Below are positions 4,216 through 33,768 of a DNA stretch of 64,000 nt, piece by piece; the stretch's first letter is position 1; each line of letters begins with the position of its first letter. Position numbers and translations under genes: made by a program. The notes under the pieces are model-generated. The model was not told the DNA's origin. It worked only from the letters and a program-made list of their open reading frames with translations, and did not search any database. The stretch is taken from NCBI GenBank assembly GCA_036351015.1, contig JAZBOG010000013.1, positions 2,998 through 66,997 on the forward strand. Reading direction: 5' to 3'. Origin of the DNA: Bacteroidales bacterium (lineage in GTDB: Bacteria > Bacteroidota > Bacteroidia > Bacteroidales > UBA12077).

Positions 4216-6525
4216 TTACTTCGAATATTCGGTAATGTCGGTGGCAATCTTGAGCACTTTTAAGGGGGATCCGTCTTCGTCAAGAATGGGTGTATAGGTT
4301 GCCACAAAAACATATTTTTTTTCCTCAAATTCCACACGCTCGGTCTCCTTTTTCGTAATTCCGTTGCGTAAATCATTCCAGAACAACTCGTTATCCTTCA
4401 ACTGGGCTTTGGTCAGTTTCATGTTATCGGTATGATGGGTTCCGATCAGCTGATCGCTCGTGGTACCCACCAGTTGCAGGTAGTTGTCATTAACCGAGAT
4501 GATCCGCCCATCCAGGTCATATTCGATCACCAGGTTGGCACGGTTCAGCGCATCGAGTAATCCCTGCATTTCGGCACTTCGCCGGGCCGCTTCTTCCTGG
4601 GTAGCCTGGAGTTCTTCCATATTCTGACGCATCTCTTCTTCCTGGGCTGCCATCTCCTCACTCTGCTGCTGGGATTGTTCCAGCAACTGGTTGGTCCGGA
4701 TATTAATCTTGGTCGTAGAAATCGTTGAGGCAATACTTTCACCGACCTCTTCGACAAACTTAATTACATGATCCTCAAAGGAATTAAATCCTGCCAGCTC
4801 AACAACACCATGGATTTCATCGTTCACCTTTAGCGGAACAATAAGCAGGGCATTGGGAACCGATTCACCCAGCCCAGAAGTAATATTGATATACTCTTCG
4901 GGTAAATCGGTCATATAAATAGTTTTTTGCTCCTGAACACAACGACCGATTAATCCAACGCCTATATCAATCCGTTTTTCCATATATTTTCGCCGTTCGT
5001 AAGCGTAACAGGCAAGCAATTCAATAAACTTATCTTTCTGGTCATCATCATTAATAATAAATAATCCCCCCTGGTTGGCATCGATGTATTTAACCAGGTT
5101 ACTGATAATATGATACGCAAATTCGTTCATGTCGTCGTTATTCTGCCGCAGGATCTCTCCAAATTTAGCCAGTCCCTGGGTAGCCCAGTTTTGTTTTTGG
5201 TCTTCCACTTTTCTCTTTTCTTCCTGTTCCCGGGCAATCTTTAAACTTTTACGCATCTCTAACAACGAGTTTCCTAAAACATCCTTATCGCTCAGGAGTT
5301 CAAACTCCTTGTCCAGGTTTCCTTTTCCGATTTCCCGGGCAAAACCGGCAGTCTTGTTTAGCCCGTCGATCAACGTGTTGACCGATTGATTCATTTCCCC
5401 GATCTCGTCTTTTGATTTGATCTTAACTTTTTTCGACTCATCGATATCCCCCCGGGCTAAATCACTTAATACCCTAGTGGTTTTAACTACCGGTTGGGAA
5501 ATATTGTGAGCAATAATCCAGGTAATGAGAGCAATCAGGATTAAGCCTATCAATCCAACGATAATGGATCGCTTGAGTGTTGCTTTTGATTCTTCCATAA
5601 TGATATGAACAGGAACGGCAAAACCAAAGGACCAGGGGGTAGGACTTTCGCCAATATAAACGGGAGCAAAAGAGACCCAGTATTCTTTTCCGTCTTCACC
5701 GGTTATGGTATAGGAAAACTCTTCGCCTTCCTGGATATTTTGAAGCAATTCATCCGTTTCCAAGATCTTACTCCAGTCTTCTTCGATAAATTTACCTACC
5801 AGCTGTTCATTGTTATGGGCAACATATTGCCCGTTACAGGCGATTAAGAAGGCATAACTCTGGTCAATGGGGTGAATATTGACAATTAAATCCTGGAAAC
5901 GCTGCAAGGGAAGATCAAAGCCTGCTAATCCAACGGCTTTATTTTGATCTAATATGGGAACGGCAACACTGGTTTCCAGAACCTCTTCTTCTCCGGCCTG
6001 GTAGGTAAAATAGTAAGGATCCATAACATATTCAACCTTCTTATTCAGAATATCATAATAGGCACCGCGGGTAAACCCCGGAACCGTATCCAGAATCTCT
6101 TCCTTATAAAGTATCTGTCCACCCATCCGGTAATAGGTCAACCGCAAACGGCCATGAGGCTTATCCCAGTCGGGCCAGATAGCACTTAATTCCCAATTGT
6201 ACCAGGTGGATAAAAAATTGGGATTATCCTTAATTAAGTGCAGCAGCATCTCTTTCTGAATCTCTTTTCGATTCTGCGGATCAAGATTTTTATATCCTTT
6301 GGATACCTGTGCCAGAGCCCTGGTCATATTCATGTCCACATTTAAATCCGCTTTAACATAGTTGGCATATTCGCGGGCATAGGTGTCGGTTAACTCTTTG
6401 GCATTGTTAAATGCTATATTATTTAGTTTTAAACTAACATAACCCAAAGCTAATGCATAAATTATGGATGACGCGGTAAGAATATATACCAGCATCTTTG
6501 TTTTAAGATTCATCTTGATCTTCAT
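4216..6525 (-). CDS. Membrane sensor protein: periplasmic Cache-like domain, TM, HAMP, GAF, coiled coil, PAS; no recognisable output domain
   Basis: Two TM segments flank a roughly 290-aa extracytoplasmic region. A HAMP-like segment follows the second TM (ISQPVVKTTRVLSDLARGDID...). Next come a GAF-like block (GGLFIINDDD...IGRCVQEQKTIYMTD...VPLKVNDEIHGVVELA), a Glu/Gln-rich coiled coil and a C-terminal PAS-like block (VIEYDLDGRIISVND...). Confidence 0.75.
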   Translation of the reverse strand: MKIKMNLKTKMLVYILTASSIIYALALGYVSLKLNNIAFNNAKELTDTYAREYANYVKADLNVDMNMTRALAQVSKGYKNLDPQNRKEIQKEMLLHLIKDNPNFLSTWYNWELSAIWPDWDKPHGRLRLTYYRMGGQILYKEEILDTVPGFTRGAYYDILNKKVEYVMDPYYFTYQAGEEEVLETSVAVPILDQNKAVGLAGFDLPLQRFQDLIVNIHPIDQSYAFLIACNGQYVAHNNEQLVGKFIEEDWSKILETDELLQNIQEGEEFSYTITGEDGKEYWVSFAPVYIGESPTPWSFGFAVPVHIIMEESKATLKRSIIVGLIGLILIALITWIIAHNISQPVVKTTRVLSDLARGDIDESKKVKIKSKDEIGEMNQSVNTLIDGLNKTAGFAREIGKGNLDKEFELLSDKDVLGNSLLEMRKSLKIAREQEEKRKVEDQKQNWATQGLAKFGEILRQNNDDMNEFAYHIISNLVKYIDANQGGLFIINDDDQKDKFIELLACYAYERRKYMEKRIDIGVGLIGRCVQEQKTIYMTDLPEEYINITSGLGESVPNALLIVPLKVNDEIHGVVELAGFNSFEDHVIKFVEEVGESIASTISTTKINIRTNQLLEQSQQQSEEMAAQEEEMRQNMEELQATQEEAARRSAEMQGLLDALNRANLVIEYDLDGRIISVNDNYLQLVGTTSDQLIGTHHTDNMKLTKAQLKDNELFWNDLRNGITKKETERVEFEEKKYVFVATYTPILDEDGSPLKVLKIATDITEYSK

Positions 6526-6751: not shown

Positions 6752-8545
6752 ATGATATTAGCACGTATTGACTGGGCAATTGTGTTTTCATTCTTTGTTC
6801 TTTCCCTGCTGATAGGGATCTATTCGGCCAGAAAAGCAGGAAAGAGTGCCTCGGAGTTTTTCCTTTCCAACCGGAACATGCCCTGGTGGTTACTGGGGGT
6901 ATCGATGGTAGCCACTACTTTCTCGTGTGATACCCCGAACCTGGTTACCGATATTGTACGGCAGGACGGGGTGTATGGTAACTGGGCCTGGTGGGCCTTC
7001 CTATTAACCGGTATGCTTACCGTCTTTATCTATGCCAAACTATGGCGCCGGTCGGGGGTAATGACAGATCTTGAATTTTATGAAATCCGCTACAGTGGAA
7101 AAATAGCTGCTTTTTTACGGGGATTCAGGGCCATATACCTGGGAGCCTTTTTTAATATTTTTATCATTGCTACGGTTTCGTTGGCATTAATAAAGATCAG
7201 TGCGGTCATGCTTCAATGGCCCCCTGTAAAAACGATTCTTATTGCTTCCCTGATCACTGTTATATACAGCACACTGGGCGGTTTACGGGGAATTTTACTC
7301 ACCGACTTTTTCCAGTTTTTTATGTCGATGGCAGGTGCCATTGGGGCTGCGATCATTGTATTAAAGATGCCCGAAGTAGGAGGGATGGAAGGTTTGGTTT
7401 CTCATCCCGAAGTCATTCCAAAACTCCGGTTTTTGCCTGATTTTTCCAATACCGAAGCATTAATAACCCTGTTGGTATTGCCCCTTGCCGTTCAATGGTG
7501 GAGCGTTTGGTACCCCGGGGCTGAACCCGGCGGAGGAGGATATATTGCCCAGCGTATGCTATCAGCACGTAACGAGAAGGGATCAATTCAGGCGACCTTG
7601 TTTTTCAACGTGGCTCATTATGCATTACGTCCCTGGCCATGGATCATTGTTGCCCTGGGCTCAGTCATTATCTTTCCTGACCTGATCAGTTTACAGCAAA
7701 CCTTTCCCAACATTGATCCTCAGCTGGTAAAACACGACCTGGCTTATCCGGCTATGCTCTCCATGCTTCCCAAAGGATTGCTGGGGCTGGTGGTGGCTTC
7801 GCTTATTGCCGCCTACATGTCTACGGTATCCACCCAGTTAAACTGGGGAGCTTCTTACCTGGTCAACGATTTTTATCAACGTTTTGTAAACACGAAAGCC
7901 TCTGAAAAACAGCTGGTAAGAGCCGGAAGGTTATTCACCGTTCTCCTGATGCTCTTGGCAGGTTTATTTACCCTGATCCTGAGTAATGCATTACAGGCTT
8001 TTCACATTATCCTGCAAATTGGCGCAGGTACCGGGCTGATTTTTATTCTTCGCTGGTTTTGGTGGAGGATCAATGCATTATCCGAGATTACAGCCATGGT
8101 GGTATCTTTCCTGGTTGCCCTCTTTTTACAGTTTGTCTATCCGCATTTGGGATATCCGCCCCTTTCAGGGCCGATCCAGATGCTCATCGGAGTCTTTATT
8201 ACCACGATGGCCTGGTTATCGGTTGCCCTTTTAACCCGGCCCACCGATGATAAAACCCTGATTCGGTTCTACCGGTTGGTTCAGCCAGGCGGACCGGGAT
8301 GGAAAAAAATGATTGCCAGAGCCCGGAAACAAGGCGTCGTGTTTAGCGACGAAAAGGAAAAAAGCTGGGATGTCCCCGCAGGGATCCTGTGCATGGTAAT
8401 CGGTGCCTTTGCCATCTATTCAGCACTCTTTGCTACCGGGTACTGGATCTACGGTCAATATCTTCAGGCTACAATTTTAACATTTGTGTCTATTTTGGCT
8501 ATCTTTGCCCTTCTTAAGTTATGGAGTAAACTCAAAATACAGTAA
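6752..8545 (+). CDS. Sodium:solute symporter (SSS) family transporter
   Basis: The 597-aa product is polytopic with about 13-14 TM segments. The pattern is SSS-like (GGGYIAQRMLSARNEK, WWxxW motifs). Confidence 0.85.
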   Translation: MILARIDWAIVFSFFVLSLLIGIYSARKAGKSASEFFLSNRNMPWWLLGVSMVATTFSCDTPNLVTDIVRQDGVYGNWAWWAFLLTGMLTVFIYAKLWRRSGVMTDLEFYEIRYSGKIAAFLRGFRAIYLGAFFNIFIIATVSLALIKISAVMLQWPPVKTILIASLITVIYSTLGGLRGILLTDFFQFFMSMAGAIGAAIIVLKMPEVGGMEGLVSHPEVIPKLRFLPDFSNTEALITLLVLPLAVQWWSVWYPGAEPGGGGYIAQRMLSARNEKGSIQATLFFNVAHYALRPWPWIIVALGSVIIFPDLISLQQTFPNIDPQLVKHDLAYPAMLSMLPKGLLGLVVASLIAAYMSTVSTQLNWGASYLVNDFYQRFVNTKASEKQLVRAGRLFTVLLMLLAGLFTLILSNALQAFHIILQIGAGTGLIFILRWFWWRINALSEITAMVVSFLVALFLQFVYPHLGYPPLSGPIQMLIGVFITTMAWLSVALLTRPTDDKTLIRFYRLVQPGGPGWKKMIARARKQGVVFSDEKEKSWDVPAGILCMVIGAFAIYSALFATGYWIYGQYLQATILTFVSILAIFALLKLWSKLKIQ

Positions 8546-8548
8546 GTT

Positions 8549-9469
8549 ATGGATTTAACCTTATTAGTTCTTGCAGCAGGGATGGGAAGCCGTTACGGAG
8601 GCTTAAAACAACTCGACCAGGTTGGCCCGTCGGGTGAAACAATCATCGATTACTCGGTATACGATGCCCTGGAAGCAGGCTTTACTAAAATCGTATTTAT
8701 TATCCGGAAGGATATTGAACAGGAGATGAAAGAACTGCTCTTTAAAAAATATAGCCAACGGATTCCCGTTGATTATGTTTTTCAGGAATTAGACAATGTC
8801 CCCGAAGGGATAAAAATACCGGAAAACCGGGTAAAACCCTGGGGAACCGGGCACGCCGTTTTAATGGCCAAAGATGTCATCCACGAGCCATTTGTGGTTA
8901 TTAATGCCGATGACTTTTATGGGAAAGGAGCCTTTCGGGTTGTGGCAGATTATATCCGGAGCCAGCAACATGATTTAAGCGGCAAGTATTGTATGGCCGG
9001 GTACCTGCTCAAAAATACCTTATCTGACCATGGTACCGTTTCCCGGGGCGTTTGCCGCGTAAACGAAAACCATGAACTGGTTGATATAACCGAAAGAACC
9101 AAAATTGGCCGGGAAAACCACCAGATTGTTGCGGATAGCGAACAAGGAAAACTATCTTTTACCGGGGATGAATATGTATCAATGAACTTCTGGGGGTTTA
9201 CTCCCGATGTATTCCCTGAACTGGAAGCTGAATTCAAAAAGTTTATTCAGCAAAATTCGGATCAGCCCAAAGCTGAATATTATATTCCAAGCATTGTAAG
9301 TCACCAGATGGAAAATCATCAGGCAACGGTAAAAGTAATCCCTGCCAATAGCCAGTGGTTTGGTGTTACCTACCGGGAGGATAAGCCGGTAGTGATCGAA
9401 AAAATCAAGGAATTGACCCGGGCAGGAGAATACCCGGCAAAACTTTGGGATGAACCTCTAAAATCATAA
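8549..9469 (+). CDS. Sugar-1-phosphate nucleotidyltransferase family protein
   Basis: The N-terminal LAAGMGSRYGG matches the GxG(T/S)R signature of NTP-transferases. The start lies 3 nt after the transporter stop. Confidence 0.8.
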   Translation: MDLTLLVLAAGMGSRYGGLKQLDQVGPSGETIIDYSVYDALEAGFTKIVFIIRKDIEQEMKELLFKKYSQRIPVDYVFQELDNVPEGIKIPENRVKPWGTGHAVLMAKDVIHEPFVVINADDFYGKGAFRVVADYIRSQQHDLSGKYCMAGYLLKNTLSDHGTVSRGVCRVNENHELVDITERTKIGRENHQIVADSEQGKLSFTGDEYVSMNFWGFTPDVFPELEAEFKKFIQQNSDQPKAEYYIPSIVSHQMENHQATVKVIPANSQWFGVTYREDKPVVIEKIKELTRAGEYPAKLWDEPLKS

Positions 9470-12840: not shown

Positions 12841-15636
12841 ATGAGCCCGACAGAAGCAGTAACCAGAAAACAAATCATTGATATCAAGTTAAAAGATGCT
12901 GGGTGGAACGTGAAAGACCGTTCACAAGTAATCGAAGAATTTGATATTGAAGTAGGACTTCCTGAAGGTGTTTCTGAACCGCGAACAGAATATGATGGTC
13001 ATCAGTTCAGTGATTATGTGTTAGTAGGAAAAGATGGCAAACCGCTTGCCGTTGTTGAAGCAAAAAGAACTACCAAAGATGCTGAAATAGGTCGTGAACA
13101 AGCTAAACAATACTGCCAAAATATCGCAAATCAGAATGGGGGTGAACTTCCATTTTGTTTTTATACTAATGGATTAGAAATCTACTTTTGGGATTTAGGG
13201 AATTATCCACCTCGAAAAGTGGTTGGATTTCCTACCAGGGAAGACTTAGAACGTTATCAATACGTAAGAAAAAACAGGAAACCTTTGGCTGATGAACTAA
13301 TCAATCCGAATATTGCCGGGCGTGATTACCAAATGACTGCCATTAGAACTGTGATGGAATCTTTAGAAAAAAAACATCGCAAGTTTTTATTGGTAATGGC
13401 TACTGGAACAGGTAAAACAAGAACCTGTATTGCATTTGTGGATGCTTTAATGCGAGCTGGTTGGGCAGAACGAGTTTTATTCCTTGTTGATCGTATTGCT
13501 TTAAGAAATCAAGCAATAGATGCTTTTAAAGAACATCTGCCTAATGAACCACGTTGGCCCAATCCTGAAGATAAAGAGATTGAAAAGAATCGTCGAATAT
13601 ATGTATCGACATACCCAACGATGTTGAATATAATCCGCAGTGATAAAGCTTTATCTCCGCATTTTTTCGATCTAATAGTAATAGACGAGAGCCATCGTTC
13701 CATTTACAATACGTATCAGGAAGTATTGGACTATTTCAATACCATAAGCCTGGGTTTAACAGCTACACCAACCGATGTAATCGATCATAATACATTTGAT
13801 CTGTTCAATTGTGAAGATGGCATGCCAACGTTTGCCTATTCTTATGAAGAAGCTATAAACCACGAACCACCATACTTATGCGATTTTCAAGTAATGAAAT
13901 TGCACACTAAATTTCAGGTTGAAGGAATTAGTAAACGTACAATCAGCCTTGAAGATCAAAAAAGATTGATTCTGGAAGGAAAAGATGTAGAAGAAATCAA
14001 TTTTGAAGGAACGGACCTTGAAAAGAAAGTAATCAATAAGGGTACAAATACGCTTATCGTAAAGCAGTTTATGGAAGAGTGTATTAAAGATCCTAATGGT
14101 GTATTACCTGGTAAAACCATTTTCTTTTGCTCTTCGATGAAACATGCCCGAAGGATTGAAAAAATATTTGATGCACTATATCCTGAATACAAAGGCGACC
14201 TGGCAAAAGTAATTGTTTCAGACGACCCACGAGTTTATGGCAAAGGTGGATTATTGCACCAGTTTACTCACAGCGATATGCCCCGAGTGGCAATTAGTGT
14301 AGATATGCTTGATACAGGGATTGATGTGCGTGAGATTGTAAATCTTGTATTTGCAAAACCTGTATATTCCTATACCAAATTCTGGCAAATGATTGGTCGT
14401 GGAACTCGTTTATTAGAACCCAAGAAAATCAAACCCTGGTGCCCTGAAAAGGATGTTTTCCTGATTATTGATTGCTGGGATAACTTCGAGTATTTCAAAT
14501 TAACTCCAAAAGGAAAAGAATTAAAACCATCATTGCCTTTACCGGTTAAATTGGTTGGTATCAGATTGGATAAAATCGAAAAAGCAAAAGATACCAATCA
14601 TACTGAAATAGCTCAAAAAGAAATTGAAAAACTACGAAATCAGATAAGCGAATTACCTGAAAAATCCATTGTTATTCAGGATGCTGCAACAGATTTAGAG
14701 AAATTAAAAGATGAAAATTTCTGGATCAATCTATCTCATGATAAAATTGAATTCTTGAGAACCAATATCAAACCATTATTCAGAACAGTATCACAAAGCG
14801 ATTTTAAACGCATGCGTTTTGAAAAAGATGTATTGGAGACATCATTGGCTCACCTGGAAGAAGAAAAAGAAAAATTCGATGCTTTAAAGGATAATTTAAC
14901 CGAACAGATCAGTGAATTACCATTATCGGTTAATATTGTTGCACTTGAAAAGGATTTAATCAAAAAAGCTCAAACCAATCAATATTGGGTTACAGTAACG
15001 GATGATTTAATGGATGAACTGATTGAACGAATTGGACCTTTGATGAAATACAGGCAAGGAGAAGAAAAAACGGGTCCTGTAAGGCTTAATCTACAAGACG
15101 AAATCGTAAAAAAAGAGTTTGTTGAATTTGGTCCTGAACATGAATCGGTGAGTATTACCAAATACCGTGAAATGGTGGAAGAAAAGATCCGTGAACTGAC
15201 TGCCAATAATCCTATCCTTCAAAAATTAAAGGAAGGAATGGATATCAACGAGCAGGAAGCCGAACTCCTGGCTGAGCAGTTACACGATGAAGATCCTTAC
15301 ATTACTCTTGATTTGCTGCAAAAAGTGTATAAAAACCGCAGAGCTAAGTTTATCCAGTTTATCAAGCATATTTTAGGAATTGAAGTCTTGAAAAGTTTTC
15401 CTGAAACCGTAAGTGAATCTATAGATCAATTTATTCAGGAACATAATTATTTATCGACACGACAATTGGAGTTTATTAATCTTTTAAGAGATTATATCAT
15501 ACAACGTGGAAAAATTCAAAAAAAGGACCTTATTCAGGCTCCATTTACGGTAATTCATCCCCAAGGTATACGAGGTGTGTTTTCACCCAAAGAAATTGAA
15601 GAAATTCTTACACTTACACAAGAACTGGTAGCTTAA
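12841..15636 (+). CDS. hsdR: Type I restriction enzyme R subunit (EcoEI/IB-like C-terminus)
   Basis: The N-terminal HSDR_N nuclease has SDYVLVG...AVVEAKR (D...ExK). Helicase motifs are MATGTGKT (I), VIDESHR (II) and LGLTATP (III). The C-terminal block (STRQLEFINLLRDYIIQRG...FTVIHPQGIRGVF) resembles the EcoEI R C-terminal domain. Confidence 0.92.
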   Translation: MSPTEAVTRKQIIDIKLKDAGWNVKDRSQVIEEFDIEVGLPEGVSEPRTEYDGHQFSDYVLVGKDGKPLAVVEAKRTTKDAEIGREQAKQYCQNIANQNGGELPFCFYTNGLEIYFWDLGNYPPRKVVGFPTREDLERYQYVRKNRKPLADELINPNIAGRDYQMTAIRTVMESLEKKHRKFLLVMATGTGKTRTCIAFVDALMRAGWAERVLFLVDRIALRNQAIDAFKEHLPNEPRWPNPEDKEIEKNRRIYVSTYPTMLNIIRSDKALSPHFFDLIVIDESHRSIYNTYQEVLDYFNTISLGLTATPTDVIDHNTFDLFNCEDGMPTFAYSYEEAINHEPPYLCDFQVMKLHTKFQVEGISKRTISLEDQKRLILEGKDVEEINFEGTDLEKKVINKGTNTLIVKQFMEECIKDPNGVLPGKTIFFCSSMKHARRIEKIFDALYPEYKGDLAKVIVSDDPRVYGKGGLLHQFTHSDMPRVAISVDMLDTGIDVREIVNLVFAKPVYSYTKFWQMIGRGTRLLEPKKIKPWCPEKDVFLIIDCWDNFEYFKLTPKGKELKPSLPLPVKLVGIRLDKIEKAKDTNHTEIAQKEIEKLRNQISELPEKSIVIQDAATDLEKLKDENFWINLSHDKIEFLRTNIKPLFRTVSQSDFKRMRFEKDVLETSLAHLEEEKEKFDALKDNLTEQISELPLSVNIVALEKDLIKKAQTNQYWVTVTDDLMDELIERIGPLMKYRQGEEKTGPVRLNLQDEIVKKEFVEFGPEHESVSITKYREMVEEKIRELTANNPILQKLKEGMDINEQEAELLAEQLHDEDPYITLDLLQKVYKNRRAKFIQFIKHILGIEVLKSFPETVSESIDQFIQEHNYLSTRQLEFINLLRDYIIQRGKIQKKDLIQAPFTVIHPQGIRGVFSPKEIEEILTLTQELVA

Positions 15637-17205: not shown

Positions 17206-18795
17206 ATGTTACAAAATAATGCTCAAATAAAATCATTAATCGATAAGCTTTGGAATCAGTTCTGGAGTGGTGGTATATCCAATCCTTTAACAGCCATTGA
17301 ACAAATTACCTATTTATTGTTCATGAAACGTTTAGATGATCTGGATTCGAAACGTAAAGCGGATGCCGAATTTACAGGCGAAACCTATAAATCGAAATTT
17401 GTAGGAGAGTGGTTGCCCCCCGGAATGGAAGATAAAAAGGAAAATTATGTGGATAAAGACAGCCTGCGATGGAGCAATTTCAAGCATATGAAAGCCGAAG
17501 ATATGCTTCAGCATGTGCAACTAAAAGTGTTTCCTTTCCTGAAAACCTTGAATGGAGAAACATCACAGTTTACGAAGCACATAGCAAATGCCGTGTTTAT
17601 TATTCCTAAAGCAAGTTTACTGGTTGAAGCCATTAAAACCATCGAAGAGATTTTTATTGAGATGGATAAGGATGCCGAAAAAGGTGGACAGGCATTTCAG
17701 GATATACAGGGTGATGTGTACGAATACCTGTTGAGTGAAATAGCAGCGGCAGGTAAAAACGGGCAATTCCGAACTCCACGCCATATTATTAAATTAATGG
17801 CTGAATTGGTGCAACCCCAATTAGGGCAGCGTATTGCCGACCCAGCATGTGGCACAGGCGGTTTCTTATTGGGAGCATACCAGTACATTGTGACACAGCT
17901 AAATAAAGATAAAAGCAAGTTAAAACCTGACGAAGATGGTTTTTTCCGTAGCTCTGTGAGTGGAATGCTAACTGAAAAAGTAAAAGATATTCTTGACCAG
18001 AGTATTTTTGGCTATGATGTAGATACTACCATGGTTCGCTTAGGATTAATGAACCTGATGATGCATGGTTTTGAAGACCCTAACATTGATTATACCGATA
18101 CTTTAAGCAAAAGCTACAACGAAGAAAACACCTACGATATAGTGATGGCAAACCCGCCGTTTACAGGCAGTATTGATAAAGGCGATATTAACGAAAGCTT
18201 TAAAACTGCTACCACCAAAACCGAATTATTGTTTGTTGAGCGAATTTTTAACATGCTAAAAATAGGTGGAACAGCAGCCGTGGTTGTGCCACAAGGCGTT
18301 TTATTTGGCTCCGGCAAAGCATTCAAACAAGTTCGGCAATTAATTATAGAGCAAGCCGAATTAAAAGCAGTAATAGCGGTGCCAAGCGGAGTATTCAAAC
18401 CTTATGCAGGAGTAAGTACCGCTATATTAGTATTTACCAAAGGTGGTGAAACAAATGATGTTTGGTTTTACGATATGCAAAGCGATGGATACAGTTTAGA
18501 TGATAAACGAGCAAAGCTGGATAATAACGGTGATTTACAGGATATTGTTGTACAATTTAACAATAGAAATAGAAATAAAAAAGAAAACAGTAAAAACAAC
18601 AGCCGCAAAGCAAAACATTTCTTTGTGCCTAAAAAGGATATTGTAGATGAAGGCTATGATTTAAGCATATCCCGTTACAAAGAAGATAATTTTGAAGAAA
18701 TAGAATATGAATCTCCTATGAAAATTCTTGAAAAATTGGAAAAAATAGAGAATGAGATAACCCAGGAGTTTAATGTCATAAAGGAGATGTTTTAA
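17206..18795 (+). CDS. hsdM: Type I R-M N6-adenine DNA methyltransferase subunit
   Basis: It has the HsdM_N pattern (LWNQFWSGGISNPLTAIEQITYLLFMKRLDD), SAM motif I DPACGTGGFL and catalytic motif IV NPPF (VMANPPFTGS). Confidence 0.95.
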   Translation: MLQNNAQIKSLIDKLWNQFWSGGISNPLTAIEQITYLLFMKRLDDLDSKRKADAEFTGETYKSKFVGEWLPPGMEDKKENYVDKDSLRWSNFKHMKAEDMLQHVQLKVFPFLKTLNGETSQFTKHIANAVFIIPKASLLVEAIKTIEEIFIEMDKDAEKGGQAFQDIQGDVYEYLLSEIAAAGKNGQFRTPRHIIKLMAELVQPQLGQRIADPACGTGGFLLGAYQYIVTQLNKDKSKLKPDEDGFFRSSVSGMLTEKVKDILDQSIFGYDVDTTMVRLGLMNLMMHGFEDPNIDYTDTLSKSYNEENTYDIVMANPPFTGSIDKGDINESFKTATTKTELLFVERIFNMLKIGGTAAVVVPQGVLFGSGKAFKQVRQLIIEQAELKAVIAVPSGVFKPYAGVSTAILVFTKGGETNDVWFYDMQSDGYSLDDKRAKLDNNGDLQDIVVQFNNRNRNKKENSKNNSRKAKHFFVPKKDIVDEGYDLSISRYKEDNFEEIEYESPMKILEKLEKIENEITQEFNVIKEMF

Positions 18796-20046
18796 ATGAA
18801 GATTCTCATTCGAAAACTTGAAGAAATAGCAGATGTTATAGCTGGTCAGTCGCCACCTTCAGTAACTTATAATGAGAAAGGAGATGGTTTGCCATTTTTT
18901 CAAGGGAAAACTGATTTTGGAGAAAAGCATCCCACAATAAGGATTTGGTGTTCAGAACCTAAAAAAATTGCACTCCCAAACGATATTCTGATATCTGTTC
19001 GAGCACCTGTTGGTCCTGTGAATATTGCAAATAAGAAATCATGTATTGGAAGGGGTTTAAGTGCAATCAGAACTAAAGAAGGTAATAGCATAGATTTCTT
19101 ATTTTATTTTTTAAAATCAAATGAAAGATTAATTGCAAAAAATGCATCAGGCTCAACTTTTAGTGCAATAACTCAAAAGGATTTAAAAGAATTAAAAATA
19201 CCAATCCCTGAAAAACTTAAAGATCAAATTCACATAGCCAATGTATTATCCCGAGCAGAAACATTAATTACCAAACGCAAAGAAAGTATTCAGTTACTGG
19301 ATGAACTTCTGAAATCTACCTTTTTGGATATGTTTGGTGATCCGGTTAGAAATGAAAAAGGGTGGGAGAAAAAAGCTACTATTTCATATGCTGATTGTAT
19401 TGTTCCTGGAAGAGACAAACCAAAAAGTTTTACTGGAGATATTCCGTGGGTTACTACTGATGATCTAGAACATTTATCAACAACAATAAAGTCAAAAAAG
19501 GATATTGGACTTTTAAGAGATGAAATAAAGCAAGTAAAAGCAAGATTAATTCCTAAAGACAGTGTTCTGATGACTTGTGTGGGTGATTTAGGAGTTATAT
19601 CATTAGCTGGGCAAGATATGGTAGTAAATCAACAATTACATTCTTTTCAGTGTAAAGAAGATATTAACAATAAATTCTTAATGTTTGCATTGTCTTATCA
19701 GAAAAAATATATGTACAGAAAAGCTTCAAAAACGACTGTTCCTTACATGAATAAGACTATATGCAATAGCATTCCAGTAATTAAGCCGCCATTGGAATTA
19801 CAAAACAAATTTGCTCAAATAGTTGAAAAAGTAGAAAAAATCAAAACCAAATACCAGGAAGGCTTGCAAGAACTGGAAAACCTGTATGCTTCGTTGAGCC
19901 AAAAAGCTTTTTCATCTGCCGGAAATTTATTGAAGGCAGGTAAAGGTGAGTTGGATTTGAGTAAGATGGAAATAGAGCAGGAGAGATTGGATATAGCTGC
20001 GGAAGAAGGAGTGGGGTATGGGAAAAAGAGTCATCTAAAAAAGTAA
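18796..20046 (+). CDS. hsdS: Type I R-M specificity subunit (two target-recognition domains)
   Basis: The ATG directly abuts the hsdM stop. There are two TRD-like halves separated by the conserved helical spacer (IANVLSRAETLITKRKESIQLLDELLKSTFLDMFGDP). The C-terminal conserved helix is FAQIVEKVEKIK...LYASLSQKAF. Confidence 0.9.
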   Translation: MKILIRKLEEIADVIAGQSPPSVTYNEKGDGLPFFQGKTDFGEKHPTIRIWCSEPKKIALPNDILISVRAPVGPVNIANKKSCIGRGLSAIRTKEGNSIDFLFYFLKSNERLIAKNASGSTFSAITQKDLKELKIPIPEKLKDQIHIANVLSRAETLITKRKESIQLLDELLKSTFLDMFGDPVRNEKGWEKKATISYADCIVPGRDKPKSFTGDIPWVTTDDLEHLSTTIKSKKDIGLLRDEIKQVKARLIPKDSVLMTCVGDLGVISLAGQDMVVNQQLHSFQCKEDINNKFLMFALSYQKKYMYRKASKTTVPYMNKTICNSIPVIKPPLELQNKFAQIVEKVEKIKTKYQEGLQELENLYASLSQKAFSSAGNLLKAGKGELDLSKMEIEQERLDIAAEEGVGYGKKSHLKK

Positions 20047-26029: not shown

Positions 26030-26033
26030 AGAA

Positions 26034-26060
26034 ATCGTGAAATATATCACGATTTTTTTT
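26034..26060 (+). terminator. Intrinsic terminator closing the Ubl-E2/E1-Zn-ribbon operon
   Basis: ATCGTGA-AATATA-TCACGAT is a perfect 7-bp stem followed by T7, and it starts 5 nt after the stop codon. Confidence 0.75.
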
Positions 26061-26145
26061 AATGTTATGACTTAGAATACAGTAATTTAATTTGTGTTTT
26101 GTATTCTTATTAGTAACTTTAAATAAAATACAAATATGCCTAGTT

Positions 26146-27609
26146 ATGTTTATTAGAAATTTATTCTTTCTATTATTTATAGTGGATATACTTATTATAT
26201 GGCTTTTTCCTGAAGGAACATTAAAGAGTATAACAATAGCAATAATTTCTGTTTTATTATGTGCTTCTGGTTATTCATTCAAAGATATTTTTGAGAAGAA
26301 GCTTAAACAAAAATCAATAAAAAGATTTCAGAATATTATTATAGAGAGATTCAATAATTACTTTTATTTTCAATTAGGATTTAGAATTAATACCAATTCA
26401 TTGAAATATGAAGAGAATGAAATTGAGATACTTCAAGAATCCATAAAAAATTGTCTTGGTGAAGATTCAAGTAAGATAAAAGTTAATTCACTATTATTAT
26501 GTTATCAATGTAAAAAATGGGATGAAACTAAGTCTCCTGAAGATTTTCAACAGATACAAATTCAATCTGAAAATTTGGGAATAAAATATGGAGAGATTAC
26601 GTCAGATGTGCATATGTTTTTGGAGTATTATTCAAAATTAATTCTTAAAAAGGAAAACACTGAAAATGATAAAGAAATTTTTGATCAATTTTCAGTAAAA
26701 CATTATAAAGATCTTCAGTTTTATAGTATTAAAGAAGAACTTTATCAGTCAAAGAACCTACATGATACTTTAGTCAAACTTATAAAAGATGGGAAACTAT
26801 CAACATACGGAATAAATTCAGATTCATTATACAAACTCCAAAAAGACTTACAAACAAAGTACTTAAAACAAAACACTTACTTAATCTTTACTAATAAAAT
26901 TCCAGAAAATGTAAGATCCTATCTAAAAAGTTTACCAGGATTTTCGGGAAGTCGTATTTGGTCAAAAAATGTACCTGAACATAGCAGTTTGTTTGGTGCA
27001 TACATCGTAAGACCACCTGAAATACATTCAATTGATGAGTTAATTGAAATAATTAAATTAAAAGCTGGTAAGCAGGATTCCCAAACCTTAATAAGGATAA
27101 TTCCGCTTGATTTCTTGCATAGTAAAATATATACAATCCCAGAGGATCAAAGTTTTACAACAAGAGGTTTGCAAGAGAGTTACGAAACATTAGAATGGTT
27201 TAGAACAGGTTATGTCATGCAAGATTCAGTAATATGGAATGAAATTGCAAAATCTAGTATAAGTCCAAATGAATTATTAAAAGTAATTCCTTTCAATATT
27301 TTTTGCCCAGGAATTATACCTGTTGAGCAGAGTTTTTTAATTAAACATTATGATACAATTAAAACAGAATTTAATATTGAAAAATTAGATGAATGGCGTA
27401 ATGTGGATGCAAGTTTAATGCGTGATTATATTTTAAATTTAGGAAAACCTGAATATTCAGAAGAACATTTTAATAATACACTTAAACTTAATAAAGATTC
27501 TAGTGATGACGATTTCAAAGAAGCGGTAAGGGTAAGGATGTTAGAACTTTGCGAACAAATAAAAGATAAATCAAATGATTTTTATAATTCTATGCAACAC
27601 CAAAACTAA
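26146..27609 (+). CDS. Membrane-anchored protein of unknown function (2 N-terminal TM segments + ~430-aa soluble region)
   Basis: The track ORF begins at a TTG (26092). The first ATG (26146) gives MFIRNLFFLLFIVDILIIWLF...ITIAIISVLLCASGY. I recognise no motif in the remainder. Confidence 0.55.
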   Translation: MFIRNLFFLLFIVDILIIWLFPEGTLKSITIAIISVLLCASGYSFKDIFEKKLKQKSIKRFQNIIIERFNNYFYFQLGFRINTNSLKYEENEIEILQESIKNCLGEDSSKIKVNSLLLCYQCKKWDETKSPEDFQQIQIQSENLGIKYGEITSDVHMFLEYYSKLILKKENTENDKEIFDQFSVKHYKDLQFYSIKEELYQSKNLHDTLVKLIKDGKLSTYGINSDSLYKLQKDLQTKYLKQNTYLIFTNKIPENVRSYLKSLPGFSGSRIWSKNVPEHSSLFGAYIVRPPEIHSIDELIEIIKLKAGKQDSQTLIRIIPLDFLHSKIYTIPEDQSFTTRGLQESYETLEWFRTGYVMQDSVIWNEIAKSSISPNELLKVIPFNIFCPGIIPVEQSFLIKHYDTIKTEFNIEKLDEWRNVDASLMRDYILNLGKPEYSEEHFNNTLKLNKDSSDDDFKEAVRVRMLELCEQIKDKSNDFYNSMQHQN

Positions 27610-27615
27610 TCACTC

Positions 27616-28701
27616 ATGAATAAAGAGATATTACAAAATCATATTAAGAACTTCCTAAATAAACTTAACAATGAACCAGAAACCTTAAAAAGCGGCCAAG
27701 TCGAAAGAGAAGAAAGAATTGCATATTATCAAAGCTGGACGAAGGATAAAATACTTATCATGACACCAGATGATTTGCTTGAATATTTAAGTAAATTATG
27801 GGCTATGCTTATATGGGGTAATAAGCAATATGCTGTGGATAAAATGATTTTAGATAATGAATTAGATCATTTAAGAAAGGAATTGGCAGAACTACTTTGG
27901 GGGGCAGAAAACATTGAAAAACGGTGGGATAGGGGGCGTAAAAATATTAAAGGGATGGGGCCTGCCATGCTAAGTGAGCTTTTATGTCATGTTCATCCTG
28001 ACGATCACATATTATGGAATAGAAGAGCTTTTGTTGGTTTTAATTATTTAGAAATTAATAATTTACCACGTTACAATTATCAACTAACAGGTAAAAAATA
28101 TAAGGAACTATCAATTATTGCCAAGGATATTGCAATTGAGATGAAAAAAGCAGGTGCAAAAGATTACACATTATTAGCAGTTGATTATTTCATTTGGGAA
28201 GAACTTCAAGTCGAAGATAATCTTACACAAATACACAAAAAGGTAAAGGATGAAAAACCTGTAGAAAAACTCACAAGCGAAGAATCTAAGTTTATTCATA
28301 ATGATGTGCGTGACGCAATAAGTGAAATTGGAGATTGGTTAGGTTTTAAATCTCATATTGAAAAGAAAGTAGCTGACGGTTCTGTTGTTGATGCAGTGTG
28401 GGAAGCCACGATTGGTAATATGGGGCGAGTAATGTATGTATTTGAGGTTCAGACAAAAGGCTCAATTGATAGCTTAATTTTAAATCTGTTAAAGGCACGA
28501 AATAATCCAGCAGTTCAAGGTGTAGTAGCTGTTTCAGATGCAAAACAATTAGAAAAAATCAAGAAACATGCTGCTGGTGTACCTGGTTTAGGTGAAATTC
28601 TAAAAGTATGGGACTATAACGAAGTTCTAAAAGCTCATGAGAGCTTGGAATTTGTTAATTCTACTATAAACAAGCTTAATTTAGTACCTGAAGGTTTTTG
28701 A
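27616..28701 (+). CDS. Hypothetical protein with C-terminal PD-(D/E)XK-like nuclease motif
   Basis: The C-terminus reads ISEIGDWLGF...VVDAVWEAT...VMYVFEVQTKGS, an E...D...ExQxK arrangement. The N-terminal helical region contains IKGMGPAMLSELLCHVHPDDHILWN, which looks HhH-like. The start lies 6 nt after the upstream stop. Confidence 0.55.
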   Translation: MNKEILQNHIKNFLNKLNNEPETLKSGQVEREERIAYYQSWTKDKILIMTPDDLLEYLSKLWAMLIWGNKQYAVDKMILDNELDHLRKELAELLWGAENIEKRWDRGRKNIKGMGPAMLSELLCHVHPDDHILWNRRAFVGFNYLEINNLPRYNYQLTGKKYKELSIIAKDIAIEMKKAGAKDYTLLAVDYFIWEELQVEDNLTQIHKKVKDEKPVEKLTSEESKFIHNDVRDAISEIGDWLGFKSHIEKKVADGSVVDAVWEATIGNMGRVMYVFEVQTKGSIDSLILNLLKARNNPAVQGVVAVSDAKQLEKIKKHAAGVPGLGEILKVWDYNEVLKAHESLEFVNSTINKLNLVPEGF

Positions 28702-28943
28702 AAATTATCAATATGCTAAAATTACATGAAGCGATTGCAGTTGTTTTATTAAATAAGCCCAACAGAACAGCATCAGAGCAAGAGATTGCAGATGAAATAA
28801 ACAAAAGAAATTTGTATCAACGTAGGGATGGTAATCCGGTTCCAGCATACCAAATAATGCAAAGAACTAAACTTGCTAAAGGTCTATATCATCATTTGTT
28901 TGATTATCAGTCAAAAGACAGAATAGTTTTAAAGAATTTATAA
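28698..28943 (+). CDS. Small winged-helix (HARE/Mrr_N-like) protein
   Basis: LHEAIAVVLLNKPNRTASEQEIADEINKRNLY...GNPVPAYQIMQR fits a wHTH. The track start is a TTG overlapping the upstream stop; an alternative ATG lies at 28713. Confidence 0.5.
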   Translation: MKIINMLKLHEAIAVVLLNKPNRTASEQEIADEINKRNLYQRRDGNPVPAYQIMQRTKLAKGLYHHLFDYQSKDRIVLKNL

Positions 28944-28971: not shown

Positions 28972-29163
28972 ATGAGTTACAATTCACCCGAATTACAAGA
29001 TTTAGGAGATAATAATAGAACTGGTAACACTTGCCATGTTGCTGGAAGATGGTGCTGCAAAGATCATCCTTCAGTTGAAAAATCTGTGCGTAAAGATGAG
29101 TTTTTTCCTAAATGTGATCATGCTGGCGGTCATGATACTAAATGGTTATATGTAAAATATTAA
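28972..29163 (+). CDS. Small Cys/His-rich hypothetical protein
   Basis: The 63-aa product carries TCHVAGRWCCKDHP...PKCDHAGGHD, a possible metal-binding set. Confidence 0.4.
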   Translation: MSYNSPELQDLGDNNRTGNTCHVAGRWCCKDHPSVEKSVRKDEFFPKCDHAGGHDTKWLYVKY

Positions 29164-29176
29164 AATTTTAAATATT

Positions 29177-29368
29177 ATGAAAAAGTTTGAATACAAAATC
29201 ATTTTTGTAAAAAAAGAACATCAAAATGGTTTGCAGGATGTTTTAAATGAAATTGGCAAAGATGGATTCGAATTAATTAACTTCAGAGAAAAGGTTTCTG
29301 GTTTTGATCCTGACTTTGGAGATATGACAGAAATTGAATTAATATTTAAAAGAGAATTGAATTCATAA
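29177..29368 (+). CDS. DUF4177-like small protein
   Basis: MKKFEYKIIFVKKE...LNEIGKDGFELINF fits the DUF4177 pattern as I remember it. Confidence 0.5.
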   Translation: MKKFEYKIIFVKKEHQNGLQDVLNEIGKDGFELINFREKVSGFDPDFGDMTEIELIFKRELNS

Positions 29369-29597
29369 TTAAAGTTAACTCTCTGAGAATTGAATATTTG
29401 AAAATAGTTTGGATATATGATCGTATAACAGAAAAATCAGAAATTAAAATTCGACATTTTAACTTACCATTTTAGACAATTTAACTTATCTGCCACACGG
29501 GAAAGAAAATTATGTTAATTATGGTTTGCAGCCCTAAACACAATTTTCTGAAGCAATGTCCTATAATTAATATTATGTTAAATAGAAAGATTTAAAA

Positions 29598-29630
29598 GAA
29601 AGGGGGAAATAATTAAATCTCCCCCCTTTG
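29598..29630. terminator. Hairpin downstream of the minus-strand TPR gene, at the right edge of the accessory block
   Basis: AAAGGGGGA-AATAATTAAA-TCTCCCCCCTTTG forms an imperfect G/C stem flanked by A/T runs. Confidence 0.5.
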
Positions 29631-29649
29631 CTTAAAATCCTTTAAAATC

Positions 29650-30834
29650 TTATTGATTCTGTTCGGCCATCTTCTCAGAGATCGCTTCGTATTTATCGTT
29701 CATCTTCAAACGATAGTATAATGTTCTTAACGTTGACATGATGCCCATATCGTTGGGTTGTAACTCATGCGCCTTTTCAATATACGGCAATGATTTTTCG
29801 AATTCAGCATCCGCTTTTTCTTTGGCTTCAAGATATTTCTTGTTATCGGTAATCTTGTTAGCCTCTTCGGTTAACGCAACCCCTTCGTTGAAATAAAGTA
29901 CCCCTAAGTTATAATAAGCATCAAAAAAGGTAGGATCAATTTCAATGGCCTGCTTATACATCTCTTTGGCTTTTTCTTTGTTTCCTGTCTTATCGTAAAG
30001 GTGGGCTTCCGCATTATAGAACTGTGGATTGTCAGGATCACCTTCACGGGCCACTTTCAGATATTTAAAGGCTTCGTCAGCATCTTCAGCTTCGAGCAGG
30101 TAATAATTGATTAAAGTCCCCAGGATCGATTGATTTCCGGGATATTTCTCAAAGCCTTTCTTCAGGGTTGCCACATACTGATCGTTATCCCCTTTATTTT
30201 TGTAACACTCGGCCATCAATGCATAGGTATCCCCTTCGCCATAACCATATTTGGCGGATTCCTGATAATATTCAATCGCTTTGTCATACTTTTCAACCCG
30301 CTGTGCGGTAAGGGCGGTGTTAAAAATAATGGCAGTATCAATTTCGCCTTCAAACACAGGCATCTCTTTCACTTCCAGGGATTTCTCAAAATATTTGAAA
30401 GCTTTTTCAAAGTCTTCTGCCTGGTAGGCTTCCACTCCTTTGTTCACAAACATAGATGACATGTTTAAAAATTTGGCATCAATGGGTCCCTGATACATGT
30501 TGCTTCCTTCCATGGTATAGGCTTTCTTGTAATTATCAAAAGCATCAAACAATGGATATTCAGTTATACTTTTAAATTCAGGATTATCACTTTTGGCAAT
30601 GGCTTCGTAGGTTAATCCCTTAACATAATACGTTTTTGCCCAGTCCCTGGTATCTTCTGCTTTTTCGGCAGCATTCAGGGCTTTGATGGCGGTATCTAAT
30701 TTAACACCTTCTTCGGCCCAACGCTGAGCATTGGAAACTAATGCTTTATTACCACCACAGCTGCTGGCTAGAATGGCAATGACAGAGACCAATAACATTG
30801 GATAAAATTTCTTTATACGCTTCATGGTTTTCAT
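29650..30834 (-). CDS. TPR-repeat lipoprotein
   Basis: It has a lipobox-like signal (LVSVIAILASSCGG) and multiple TPR-like repeats (AxxYxxKGxxYxAIxxFxKALEIDP-type). Confidence 0.8.
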   Translation of the reverse strand: MKTMKRIKKFYPMLLVSVIAILASSCGGNKALVSNAQRWAEEGVKLDTAIKALNAAEKAEDTRDWAKTYYVKGLTYEAIAKSDNPEFKSITEYPLFDAFDNYKKAYTMEGSNMYQGPIDAKFLNMSSMFVNKGVEAYQAEDFEKAFKYFEKSLEVKEMPVFEGEIDTAIIFNTALTAQRVEKYDKAIEYYQESAKYGYGEGDTYALMAECYKNKGDNDQYVATLKKGFEKYPGNQSILGTLINYYLLEAEDADEAFKYLKVAREGDPDNPQFYNAEAHLYDKTGNKEKAKEMYKQAIEIDPTFFDAYYNLGVLYFNEGVALTEEANKITDNKKYLEAKEKADAEFEKSLPYIEKAHELQPNDMGIMSTLRTLYYRLKMNDKYEAISEKMAEQNQ

Positions 30835-30907
30835 AATTTAAGATTAAAATTTTTTTCAAAAGTAAAATAAATATAGTTTATGTCAAATTTTCGTACTCAA
30901 TTTTCAG

Positions 30908-33418
30908 TTAATCTTCCTGCTCATTTACATTTTCTTCCGGGTTTCCAGGAACATTATTGTTGCCGGGCTCCTCTTCATTTTCTTCTTTTTCAATTTGAGC
31001 CACAGCGGCAATCCTGTCATTATTGCGCAGGTTGATGAGCCTTACTCCCTGGGTAGCACGTCCGGTAACGCGGATATCTTGAACGGCAACCCGGATGGTA
31101 ATCCCGGAACGGTTGATGATCATCAGGTCAATATCATCATTCACCCCTTTGATGGCGACCATTTTCCCGGTTTTCTCGGTAATATTCAGGGTCTTTACTC
31201 CTTTTCCTCCCCGGTTGGTAATCCGGTATTCGTCAATGGTTGAGCGTTTTCCAAATCCTTTTTCTGAAACTACTAATATTTCATGATCCGATTCTTCGAC
31301 CCAAACCATTCCGATCACTTCATCATCGTCTTTACTCAGGGTTATTCCTCTTACGCCCGAGCCGGTTCTTCCAATGGCTCTTACCTTGGTTTCGTTAAAA
31401 CGAACCGCTTTCCCTTCGCGGGTAGCCAGGATGATGTCGCTTTTGCCGTCGGTCAATTTGGCTTCCAGCAAATAGTCGCCCTCCTTAATGGTAATGGCAT
31501 TCACCCCATTCACCCGTGGACGGGAATATGCTTCGAGCAGTGTTTTTTTCACGATTCCCTTTTTGGTACACATTACAATGTAATTGTTCCGGATATACGC
31601 TTCATCATCCAGGCTTTTTACATTGATAAATGCTTTGACCTTATCGTCGGGTTCGATATTAATCATATTCTGAATAGCCCGTCCTTTGGAGCTTCGGGTT
31701 CCTTCGGGAATCTGGTAGACCTTGAGCCAGAAACATTTTCCTTCGGCCGTAAAGAAAAGCATGGTATTATGCATCGAAGCAATAAACATGTGCTCCAGGA
31801 AGTCTTCGTCGCGTGTTGTGCTTCCCTTTGAGCCGACCCCTCCCCGATGCTGTGTTTTGAAGTCCGTAACCGGAGTTCGTTTAATATACCCCAAATGCGA
31901 GATGGTAATTACCATGTCCTCGTCAGCATAGAAATCCTCGGGGTTAAACTCGCCTTCATCCGGAACAATCTCTGTTCTACGTTCATCTCCATAGGTCTCC
32001 TTCACCTCGATCAACTCCTCCTTAATAATCTGCATCCGCAGTTCCTCACTCTCCAGTATCGATTTTAAATACTCAATCAGCTTTTGCAGCTCCTGGTATT
32101 CTTCTTTCACCTTATCTCTTTCTAAACCAGTTAGCTTCTGAAGCCTCATGTCAAGTATTGCTTTAGCCTGAACTTCCGAAAGCTGAAATTTGGACATTAA
32201 ACCTTCTTTGGCTTCGTCCGGAGTTCTTGAGGCCCTGATCAGGGCAATCACTTCGTCGAGATGGTCCAGGGCAATCAATAATCCTTCAAGGATATGTGCT
32301 TTTTTCTCGGCCTGGTCCAGCTCGTACTGGGTACGCCGGACAACTATTTCATGACGATGATTTACAAAGCTATGAATGAGCTGTTTAAGGTTAAGTGTTT
32401 TAGGTCTTCCTTTAACTAATGCAATATTGTTGACATTAAAGGATGTTTGCAGTTGAGTATATTTGTACAATTTATTTAAGACCACATTGGCAATGGCATC
32501 CTTGCGAATATCGTAAACAATACGCATTCCGTTGCGGTCCGACTCATCGTTAATATTGGATATTCCTTCAATTTTTTTATCATTGACCAGCTCGGCCGTT
32601 TTTTTGATCAATTCGGCTTTATTCACCTGGTAGGGAATTTCTGTAACAATAATTCTTTCCCTTCCATTGGCATCCGTTTCAATTTCCACCCGGGAGCGGA
32701 TCACAATTCTTCCCCTGCCGGTTTCAAAAGCATCCTTAATACCCTGGTAGCCATAGATAATACCACCTGTAGGAAAATCAGGAGCTTTGATATGATTCAT
32801 CAGTTCGGCAATCTCGATATCATTATTATCGATATAGGCAATAATGGCGTCGATGGACTCGGATAAATTATGCGGGGGCATGTTGGTAGCCATCCCCACA
32901 GCGATTCCGGAAGCTCCGTTTACCAAGAGGTTTGGGATCCGTGTAGGGAGTACGGTAGGTTCCTGCAACGAATCATCAAAATTTAGCTGAAAATCCACGG
33001 TATTCTTGTCCAGGTCGCGAAGAATGGCTTCGGTTACTTTTTCCAGCCGGGCTTCGGTATAACGCATGGCTGCGGGGCTATCCCCGTCCACCGAACCGAA
33101 GTTACCCTGTCCGTCGACCAGCGGATATCGTAACGACCAGTGTTGTGCCATGCGGACCATCGCTTCATAAACCGATGAGTCACCATGAGGGTGATATTTA
33201 CCCAGCACCTCTCCCACAATTCTGGCCGATTTTTTATGAGATTTGTTGGAGGTTAAACCCAATTCTGACATTCCAAACAATACCCTGCGGTGTACCGGTT
33301 TAAAACCATCCCGTACATCCGGCAATGCTCTGGAAACAATAACCGACATTGAATAGTCAATGTAGGCCGATTTCATCTCCTCTTCGATATTTATCTTAAC
33401 AATTCGTTCTTCTGCCAT
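30908..33418 (-). CDS. gyrA: DNA gyrase subunit A
   Basis: It has [27 protein letters not shown], the active-site region [10 protein letters not shown] and C-terminal beta-pinwheel repeats. I placed the start at [15 protein letters not shown]; the track ORF extends 15 codons further. Confidence 0.95.
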
Positions 33419-33768
33419 ATATTCATGTATTTGATTAATTTTCCATCGTTTTTCTAAAATCATACAAAAATACTAAAATAGGTGCTTTAAAACGAATATT
33501 TTGGGGTTATAATTTAGGATTTTTCAACAACCGGCTGTTTATAACCTTTGCCAGAGAGAATAGGGATTTCATGCAATTTTGAACGATGGCTGAACAAGTT
33601 GAAAATGAATTTGTTTTAGTATTTAATTAACATCACCCCAAAAGAATTAAAACCGGACTGTTTAAATCTATTTTGGTAGAAATCAGGGATTATTTTTTAA
33701 TTTTAAAGGGTTATGTATTAATTTTGTTTTTTTTAGAAAGTGTAGAATATTATTTTGAGATAACGATT

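Follow-up and report, generated by a model that had tools for sequence, protein, structure and literature searches.

The window analyzed here, a stretch of 64,000 nucleotides from a Bacteroidales bacterium (GCA_036351015.1, contig JAZBOG010000013.1, positions 2,998–66,997 of the forward strand), carries three closely packed open reading frames (ORFs) on its plus strand, which an earlier note on this DNA had read as a possible compact defense system. Our analysis revealed that ORF1, ORF2, and ORF3 are three independently travelling accessory cassettes in a variable hotspot and not one system. The middle gene, ORF2 (27616–28701, plus strand, 361 amino acids), probably specifies a self-contained END-type nuclease for modification-dependent restriction, a candidate assignment drawn from fold prediction and residue conservation. 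The three frames are present as the earlier note had described them, with ORF1 at 26092–27609 (plus strand, 505 amino acids from a TTG start) and ORF3 at 28698–28943 (plus strand, 81 amino acids from a TTG start), separated from the middle gene by a 6-nucleotide gap and a 4-nucleotide overlap, respectively.

The N-terminal region of the middle protein (27616–28230, plus strand, residues 1 to ~205) is predicted to be an Ogg2/EndoIII-like domain of the HhH-GPD fold that would act as a sensor of modified bases. Residues 1–197 were modeled by AlphaFold (AF2) with a pLDDT of ~90, and the top Foldseek matches of the model in the PDB are the Ogg2 glycosylases 3knt, 3n0u, 3fhf, and 3fhg, with a probability of 1.0, after which MagIII, MIG, and MutY are ranked. 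The OGG-like family PF21790 was matched by 16 of 48 diverse relatives of the protein (best E-value 4e-6), and no match to it was found in a search of the window's own genome. An HhH hairpin IKGMGPAMLSELL (G113, G115, A117, E121), which runs through W134-N135 (27943–28020, plus strand), was delineated by residue conservation. The segment IKGMGPAMLSELL...LWNRR is invariant and has the HhH-hairpin form, and the GMGPAxxSE(I/L)L motif and W-N135 show little or no variation across the family. The HhH-type N-terminal region that had been proposed for this protein is thus borne out by the AF2 model, by Foldseek, and by PF21790 in the relatives. Within the hairpin, A117 is invariant and N135 nearly invariant, and an hhalign comparison with the same-genus EndoIII, itself not significant (probability 0.4%), aligns Ala117 with its lyase Lys and Asn135 with its catalytic Asp. 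The glycosylase domain of the middle protein appears to be disabled, with Ala117 and Asn135 replacing the Lys and the Asp. The protein shares with the Ogg2 8-oxoguanine glycosylases (MjOgg 3knt/3fhf, TmOgg 3n0u, SsOgg 3fhg) the N-terminal 200-residue fold and the HhH hairpin, and differs from them in these apparent substitutions, in an extra nuclease domain, and in being encoded by an accessory and not a housekeeping gene.

The extra domain occupies the C-terminal part of the middle protein (28282–28701, plus strand, residues 223–361) and resembles the PD-(D/E)XK nucleases. In this superfamily, strand 2 of the core ends in an Asp and strand 3 carries the (D/E)-x-K motif. For residues 229–353, AF2 predicts a helix, three strands, a second helix, a further strand, and a last helix, and H228, E249, D259, and E277-x-Q/H279 (E277-V-Q279 in the window) form a core that is conserved family-wide. 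The three motifs quoted in the earlier note, ISEIGDWLGF, VVDAVW, and VFEVQTKGS, were all found in ORF2, and the restriction-endonuclease-like domain to which they had been assigned is supported by this topology together with D259 and E277-x-Q279. The proposed ExQxK signature stands in its first part, with E277-x-Q279 being conserved, but not in its last, as K281 varies in the wider family. An E-x-Q variant of the PD-(D/E)XK arrangement is known from BglII. EcoT38I, a restriction enzyme, ranks third among the Foldseek matches of the middle protein (probability 0.94); no paper on its structure came up in a literature search. Searches of PDB sequences by sequence and by profile with ORF2, A1, A4, A5, and A6 gave nothing meaningful. 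On the basis of the model, the C-terminal domain is predicted to have nuclease activity. As a side observation, the C-terminal domain of one relative, P0214, gives a weak PADLOC match to DpdI (E-value 1.3e-4), which could be due to chance; DpdI is a component of the 7-deazaguanine Dpd cluster.

The combination of these two domains in one polypeptide recalls the END nucleases, a group of defense enzymes whose core is an EndoIII/Ogg domain without catalytic activity (Yee et al., bioRxiv 2025, PMC12191111). The sensor of END-PaCF1, the founding END enzyme, matches PF21790 in HHpred, the END sensors were reported to lack the glycosylase catalytic residues, and the iEndoIII/PF21790 sensor was found fused to a PLD nuclease, to a 'NucS-like PD-DExK' nuclease, or to McrB (PMC12191111). 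Of particular relevance is END-Mag (MDV2503288.1), a 'PD-DExK-iEndoIII' fusion that has been tested and restricts phages with modified G, and for which HHpred finds Ogg enzymes from S. solfataricus, M. jannaschii, and T. maritima (PMC12191111). The best structural relatives of the middle protein, identified by Foldseek, come from the same three organisms. Like the END nucleases, the middle protein joins a PF21790-related Ogg/EndoIII-like domain, in which the catalytic residues appear to be lost, to a predicted nuclease of the PD-(D/E)XK type, its gene stands solitary in a defense island, and sister architectures with an McrB GTPase exist. It fits the END kind because of its sensor fold, its fused nuclease-like domain, and its shared Ogg relatives. 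The earlier note had been unable to match the three genes to a named system; the middle protein fits the END nucleases by architecture.

We propose that the Ogg-like domain would probe incoming phage DNA and take up flipped-out non-canonical, hypermodified bases in its pocket while leaving them attached to the DNA. A bound base of this kind would then license the fused PD-(D/E)XK-type domain (D259, E277, Q279) to cut, and hypermodified phage bases would accordingly be the substrate of the protein. Host DNA, which does not carry the modification, would be spared, so that no methyltransferase partner would be needed.

Several observations weigh against the assignment of the middle protein to the END nucleases. 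The Foldseek E-values of the sensor domain are only ~2e-3, with TM-scores normalized to target length of 0.45–0.54, and the window's middle protein itself has no direct Pfam match. The assignment of Lys to Ala and Asp to Asn rests on the motif register because the hhalign comparison is not significant. The pLDDT of the C-terminal domain is only 40–84, the domain matches no nuclease family by sequence, and the canonical Lys of (D/E)XK is missing, with Q/H279 in its place. The likeness to END-Mag is one of architecture, and the domain order of END-Mag is unstated in PMC12191111; the middle protein, for its part, carries its sensor at the N-terminus and has a nuclease motif of E-x-Q/H without a conserved Lys.

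The middle protein belongs to a family of more than 2,600 database relatives, all without annotation, that retain ~60% identity across phyla and fall into 679 clusters at the 50% identity level in an exhaustive search. More than 15 bacterial and archaeal phyla are covered, including Bacteroidota, Thermodesulfobacteriota, Zixibacteria, Acidobacteriota, Chloroflexota, Spirochaetota, Patescibacteria, and Hadarchaeota. Closer to the window, none of the 40 relatives of the window genome that were searched, 24 of them from the same genus, has the middle gene. A tblastn search detected no homologue in phages and only four on plasmids, each annotated as 'hypothetical protein'. The family is horizontally spread, and Pfam, PADLOC, and NCBIfam all miss it; its thousands of 'hypothetical proteins' hereby gain a working annotation as candidate modification-dependent nucleases of the END type.

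The genomic context of the family was investigated by gathering 84 other loci with a middle-gene homologue, calling their ORFs, and clustering all neighbors. Subunits of type I restriction–modification (R-M) systems are the only recurrent neighbors: hsdM/hsdS lie upstream on the same strand in 19 of the 47 loci having at least 7 kb of upstream flank, and HsdR is encoded immediately upstream in about nine loci. According to the Pfam tally, the immediate upstream neighbors comprise HsdR, MmeI-type IIG enzymes, and BrxL, and the immediate downstream neighbors comprise NERD, AAA_15/21, and PDDEXK_4. No constant partner was found in the 84 loci, whose neighbors are of the R-M, BREX, and Abi type, and the middle gene is self-sufficient by context. 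Type IV enzymes classically adjoin type I systems, as in the hsd-mrr-mcrBC region of E. coli, and the frequent position of the middle gene just 3' of type I R-M genes fits this known clustering. Such a position also makes biological sense, since phages with hypermodified DNA frequently evade classical R-M systems.

The sensor domain is found with other partners as well. In P0285, it is fused to an McrB/LlaJI-like AAA_5 GTPase (Pfam AAA_5; PADLOC REase_II PDLC03547, E-value 4e-62), and in P0264, P0276, and P0287 to a different restriction-enzyme-like C-terminal domain; the PADLOC REase_II models seen in these sensor-fusion relatives are PDLC03547 and PDLC03534. The databases also hold gene-call fusions of the middle family with HsdS, HsdR, and methyltransferase fragments. 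Swapping of partners in this manner is typical of the readers in type IV restriction enzymes. With type IV enzymes (Mrr, MspJI/SRA, EVE-HNH VcaM4I, and McrBC), the middle protein shares the combination of a reader with a nuclease, the lack of a cognate methyltransferase, and the frequent location beside type I R-M genes. In contrast to them, its reader is an apparently disabled HhH-GPD glycosylase fold and not an SRA, EVE, wH, or DUF3578 domain.

The conservation of the three genes as a unit, a check that the earlier note had asked for, was examined in the same locus set, and the genes are not syntenic in other genomes, an outcome that the note itself had listed as refuting its claim. Relatives of ORF1 or ORF3 were found in none of the 84 other loci, either by BLAST clustering or with profile hidden Markov models, and the models of the two families match only the window itself in the set. 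Genes of the Bub, WYL, and DUF2779 types are likewise found in none of the 84. Conversely, ORF1 and ORF3 have homologues without the middle gene. Those of ORF1 are accompanied by neither of the other two genes: a Flavobacteriales homologue is preceded by a type I R-M operon, an archaeal one is surrounded by housekeeping genes, and others stand by themselves. We regard the three genes as independent cassettes because there is no shared synteny in either direction. In L004, the middle gene (8001–9086) is 94% identical at the nucleotide level to 27616–28701 of the window exactly from the ATG to the stop codon. Both genes flanking it differ from those of the window and the adjoining DNA is unrelated, giving a boundary like that of a cassette replacement. 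A single three-component defense or abortive-infection system of membrane protein, nuclease, and DNA-binding protein, possibly working with the Bub (Ubl) operon, is accordingly very improbable. The arrangement on one strand behind a terminator, with a 6-nucleotide gap and a 4-nucleotide overlap, and the location in a defense island speak for such a system, as does the protein of 520–565 amino acids that also precedes the middle gene in L004 and L006, the former sharing a leader element with the window. Yet the upstream proteins of L004 and L006 are related neither to ORF1 nor to one another, the identity between the window and L004 is limited to the middle ORF, and the lack of ORF1, ORF3, Bub, WYL, and DUF2779 relatives in the other loci argues against both the trio and its joint action with the Bub operon. 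The genes of ~500 amino acids located 5' of the middle gene in the window, L004, and L006 were also considered as remote homologues, and this was rejected, as they are mutually unrelated. The tight packing is real but reveals no conserved operon, and the three genes are probably co-transcribed here only because they are packed together. They would have accumulated head-to-tail in a variable defense hotspot bounded by the type I R-M/Bub block on one side and by the core genes TPR-gyrA on the other. Gene packing in defense hotspots can imitate an operon-encoded system.

For the middle protein on its own, two further explanations were weighed against that of an END-type nuclease. It could be an active DNA glycosylase with a nuclease or AP (apurinic/apyrimidinic)-processing domain, that is, a 'restriction glycosylase', for which Brig1 and R.PabI are in principle modified-base-excising examples, or a mobile repair enzyme. 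We consider this unlikely. The N-terminal HhH-GPD glycosylase fold and the strong conservation of the pocket residues at ~60% identity across phyla are compatible with catalysis, and the assignment of Asn for Asp is not statistically secured; but the positions of the catalytic Lys and Asp are an invariant Ala and a nearly invariant Asn, which agrees with the END sensors reported without catalytic residues (PMC12191111), and the sensor domain is also fused to an McrB-type GTPase. The patchy, strain-specific distribution and the R-M and defense context are in addition ill-suited to a repair gene. Comparably small is the chance that the middle protein serves as an accessory or alternative nuclease of a neighboring R-M system (type I, IIG, or BREX) and depends on the methylation state of that system instead of phage hypermodification. 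The same-strand position just 3' of hsdM/hsdS, the HsdR genes immediately upstream, the MmeI-type and BrxL neighbors, and the gene-call fusions described above would all be in line with it. However, the partner differs in type from locus to locus (type I, type IIG, BREX, or OLD-like), and R-M genes are missing from the vicinity in many cases, such as L003 and over half of the long loci. In the window, the type I genes lie 7.5 kb upstream, with other operons and a terminator in between. The association with type I systems, moreover, would be expected anyway because type IV enzymes classically adjoin them, which weakens this explanation. An END-type nuclease with its own sensor is thus retained as the probable identity of the middle protein.

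ORF1 encodes a protein with a two-transmembrane N-terminal anchor and no recognizable fold. Its coding frame is confirmed, but the TTG at 26092 is less likely to be its start than the ATG at 26146: all 24 aligned homologues begin at the position of Met19, so that the gene would span 26146–27609 (plus strand) and encode 487 amino acids. The two hydrophobic N-terminal segments noticed earlier are seen both in the Kyte-Doolittle profile and as AF2 helices. The family is rare, with only 26 homologues in 5.8 billion proteins, and C137, C140, H224, and C405, which are predicted to lie in the cytoplasmic part, are invariant in it. The AF2 model is weak (pLDDT 72, pTM 0.40) and gave no Foldseek match in PDB or BFVD (all probabilities low), nor was there a match in a profile search of PDB sequences, in agreement with the earlier remark that the region following the helices contains no recognizable motif. 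ORF1 is an independent island cassette and possibly a single-gene defense candidate; a putative role in defense is made plausible by its presence both behind type I R-M genes in L087 and in the present island. Homologues with 36–40% identity are also present in DPANN-type archaeal genomes (L089 and L090), between prefoldin/SRP and ribosomal-protein genes, and therefore suggest that this rare family has crossed between bacteria and archaea.

The stretch ahead of the preferred start of ORF1 contains a 32-nucleotide leader element, TTGTGTTTTGTATTCTTATTAGTAACTTTAAA (26092–26123, plus strand), which includes the TTG at 26092 and is probably untranslated. The element occurs only once in the window and nowhere else in the genome. 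In L004, a copy of ~85% identity was identified at about 6435–6470, upstream of the unrelated 521-amino-acid gene that precedes the 95%-identical middle gene there. Since the window and L004 share the leader and the middle gene, the gene between them has been swapped, and the element is a candidate promoter or recombination site. A wider reading, which we regard as possible but doubtful, combines two proposals: the middle family would be distinct from the END-Mag lineage, with its own specificity or a residual base-excision activity, and ORF1 would be a new membrane-anchored single-gene defense protein occupying a variable pre-END slot with the 32-nucleotide leader. If the specificity of the family differs from that of the tested END nucleases, it may provide a tool for detecting hypermodified phage DNA.

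ORF3 encodes a small HARE-HTH-like winged-helix protein. Its frame is present, but translation probably starts at the ATG at 28713, giving 76 amino acids and an 11-nucleotide gap to the middle gene instead of the 4-nucleotide overlap. Among its 28 homologues, 14 weakly match the HARE-HTH family PF05066 (E-values 6e-4 or weaker), the ORF3 of the window staying below the threshold; the small winged-helix protein that had been suggested here is borne out by these relatives. ORF3 resembles HARE-HTH in its small winged helix, and one relative is named 'HTH HARE-type domain-containing' by UniRef, but it differs in being a stand-alone protein of 76–81 amino acids. In another Bacteroidota genome (L116, stretch 4586–5243), an ORF3 homologue occupies the same chromosomal site beside TPR and gyrA, and the two loci share 72% nucleotide identity over 29507–33545 of the window. 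The homologue overlaps a Vsr endonuclease gene by 26 nucleotides, and an AAA_15/21 gene also precedes it. As far as can be judged from the sequence, ORF3 is a separate protein predicted to bind DNA and keeps its place where the variable island ends on the right, and a small gene of this type may mark the border of a variable defense hotspot.

The setting of the three genes is indeed a defense island, as the earlier note had assumed. The GC content of the region is low, 28–35% against ~43% in the flanks, and the low-GC block also carries a type I R-M system (hsdR 12841–15636, hsdM 17206–18795, and hsdS 18796–20046), a DUF2779 gene, a WYL regulator, and the Bub (Ubl) operon of Multi_ubiq, DUF6791-ThiF, and DUF6527 genes (Pfam). 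The terminator that had been placed upstream of ORF1 is real: a hairpin with an 8-bp stem (AAATCGTG/CACGATTT), a loop of N8, and a T-run (TTTTTT) at 26032–26060 (plus strand) closes the upstream Bub operon. Direct scans of Pfam, PADLOC, NCBIfam, and PHROGs with the proteins of ORF1, ORF2, and ORF3 gave no match. Two small ORFs follow ORF3 at 28972–29368, one encoding a 63-amino-acid Cys/His-rich protein without a match and the other a 63-amino-acid DUF4177 protein (Pfam 7e-7; the NCBIfam Sp36 family falls below the cut-off). The 123 nucleotides just 3' of these two small ORFs (29375–29497) are 90% identical to L004.

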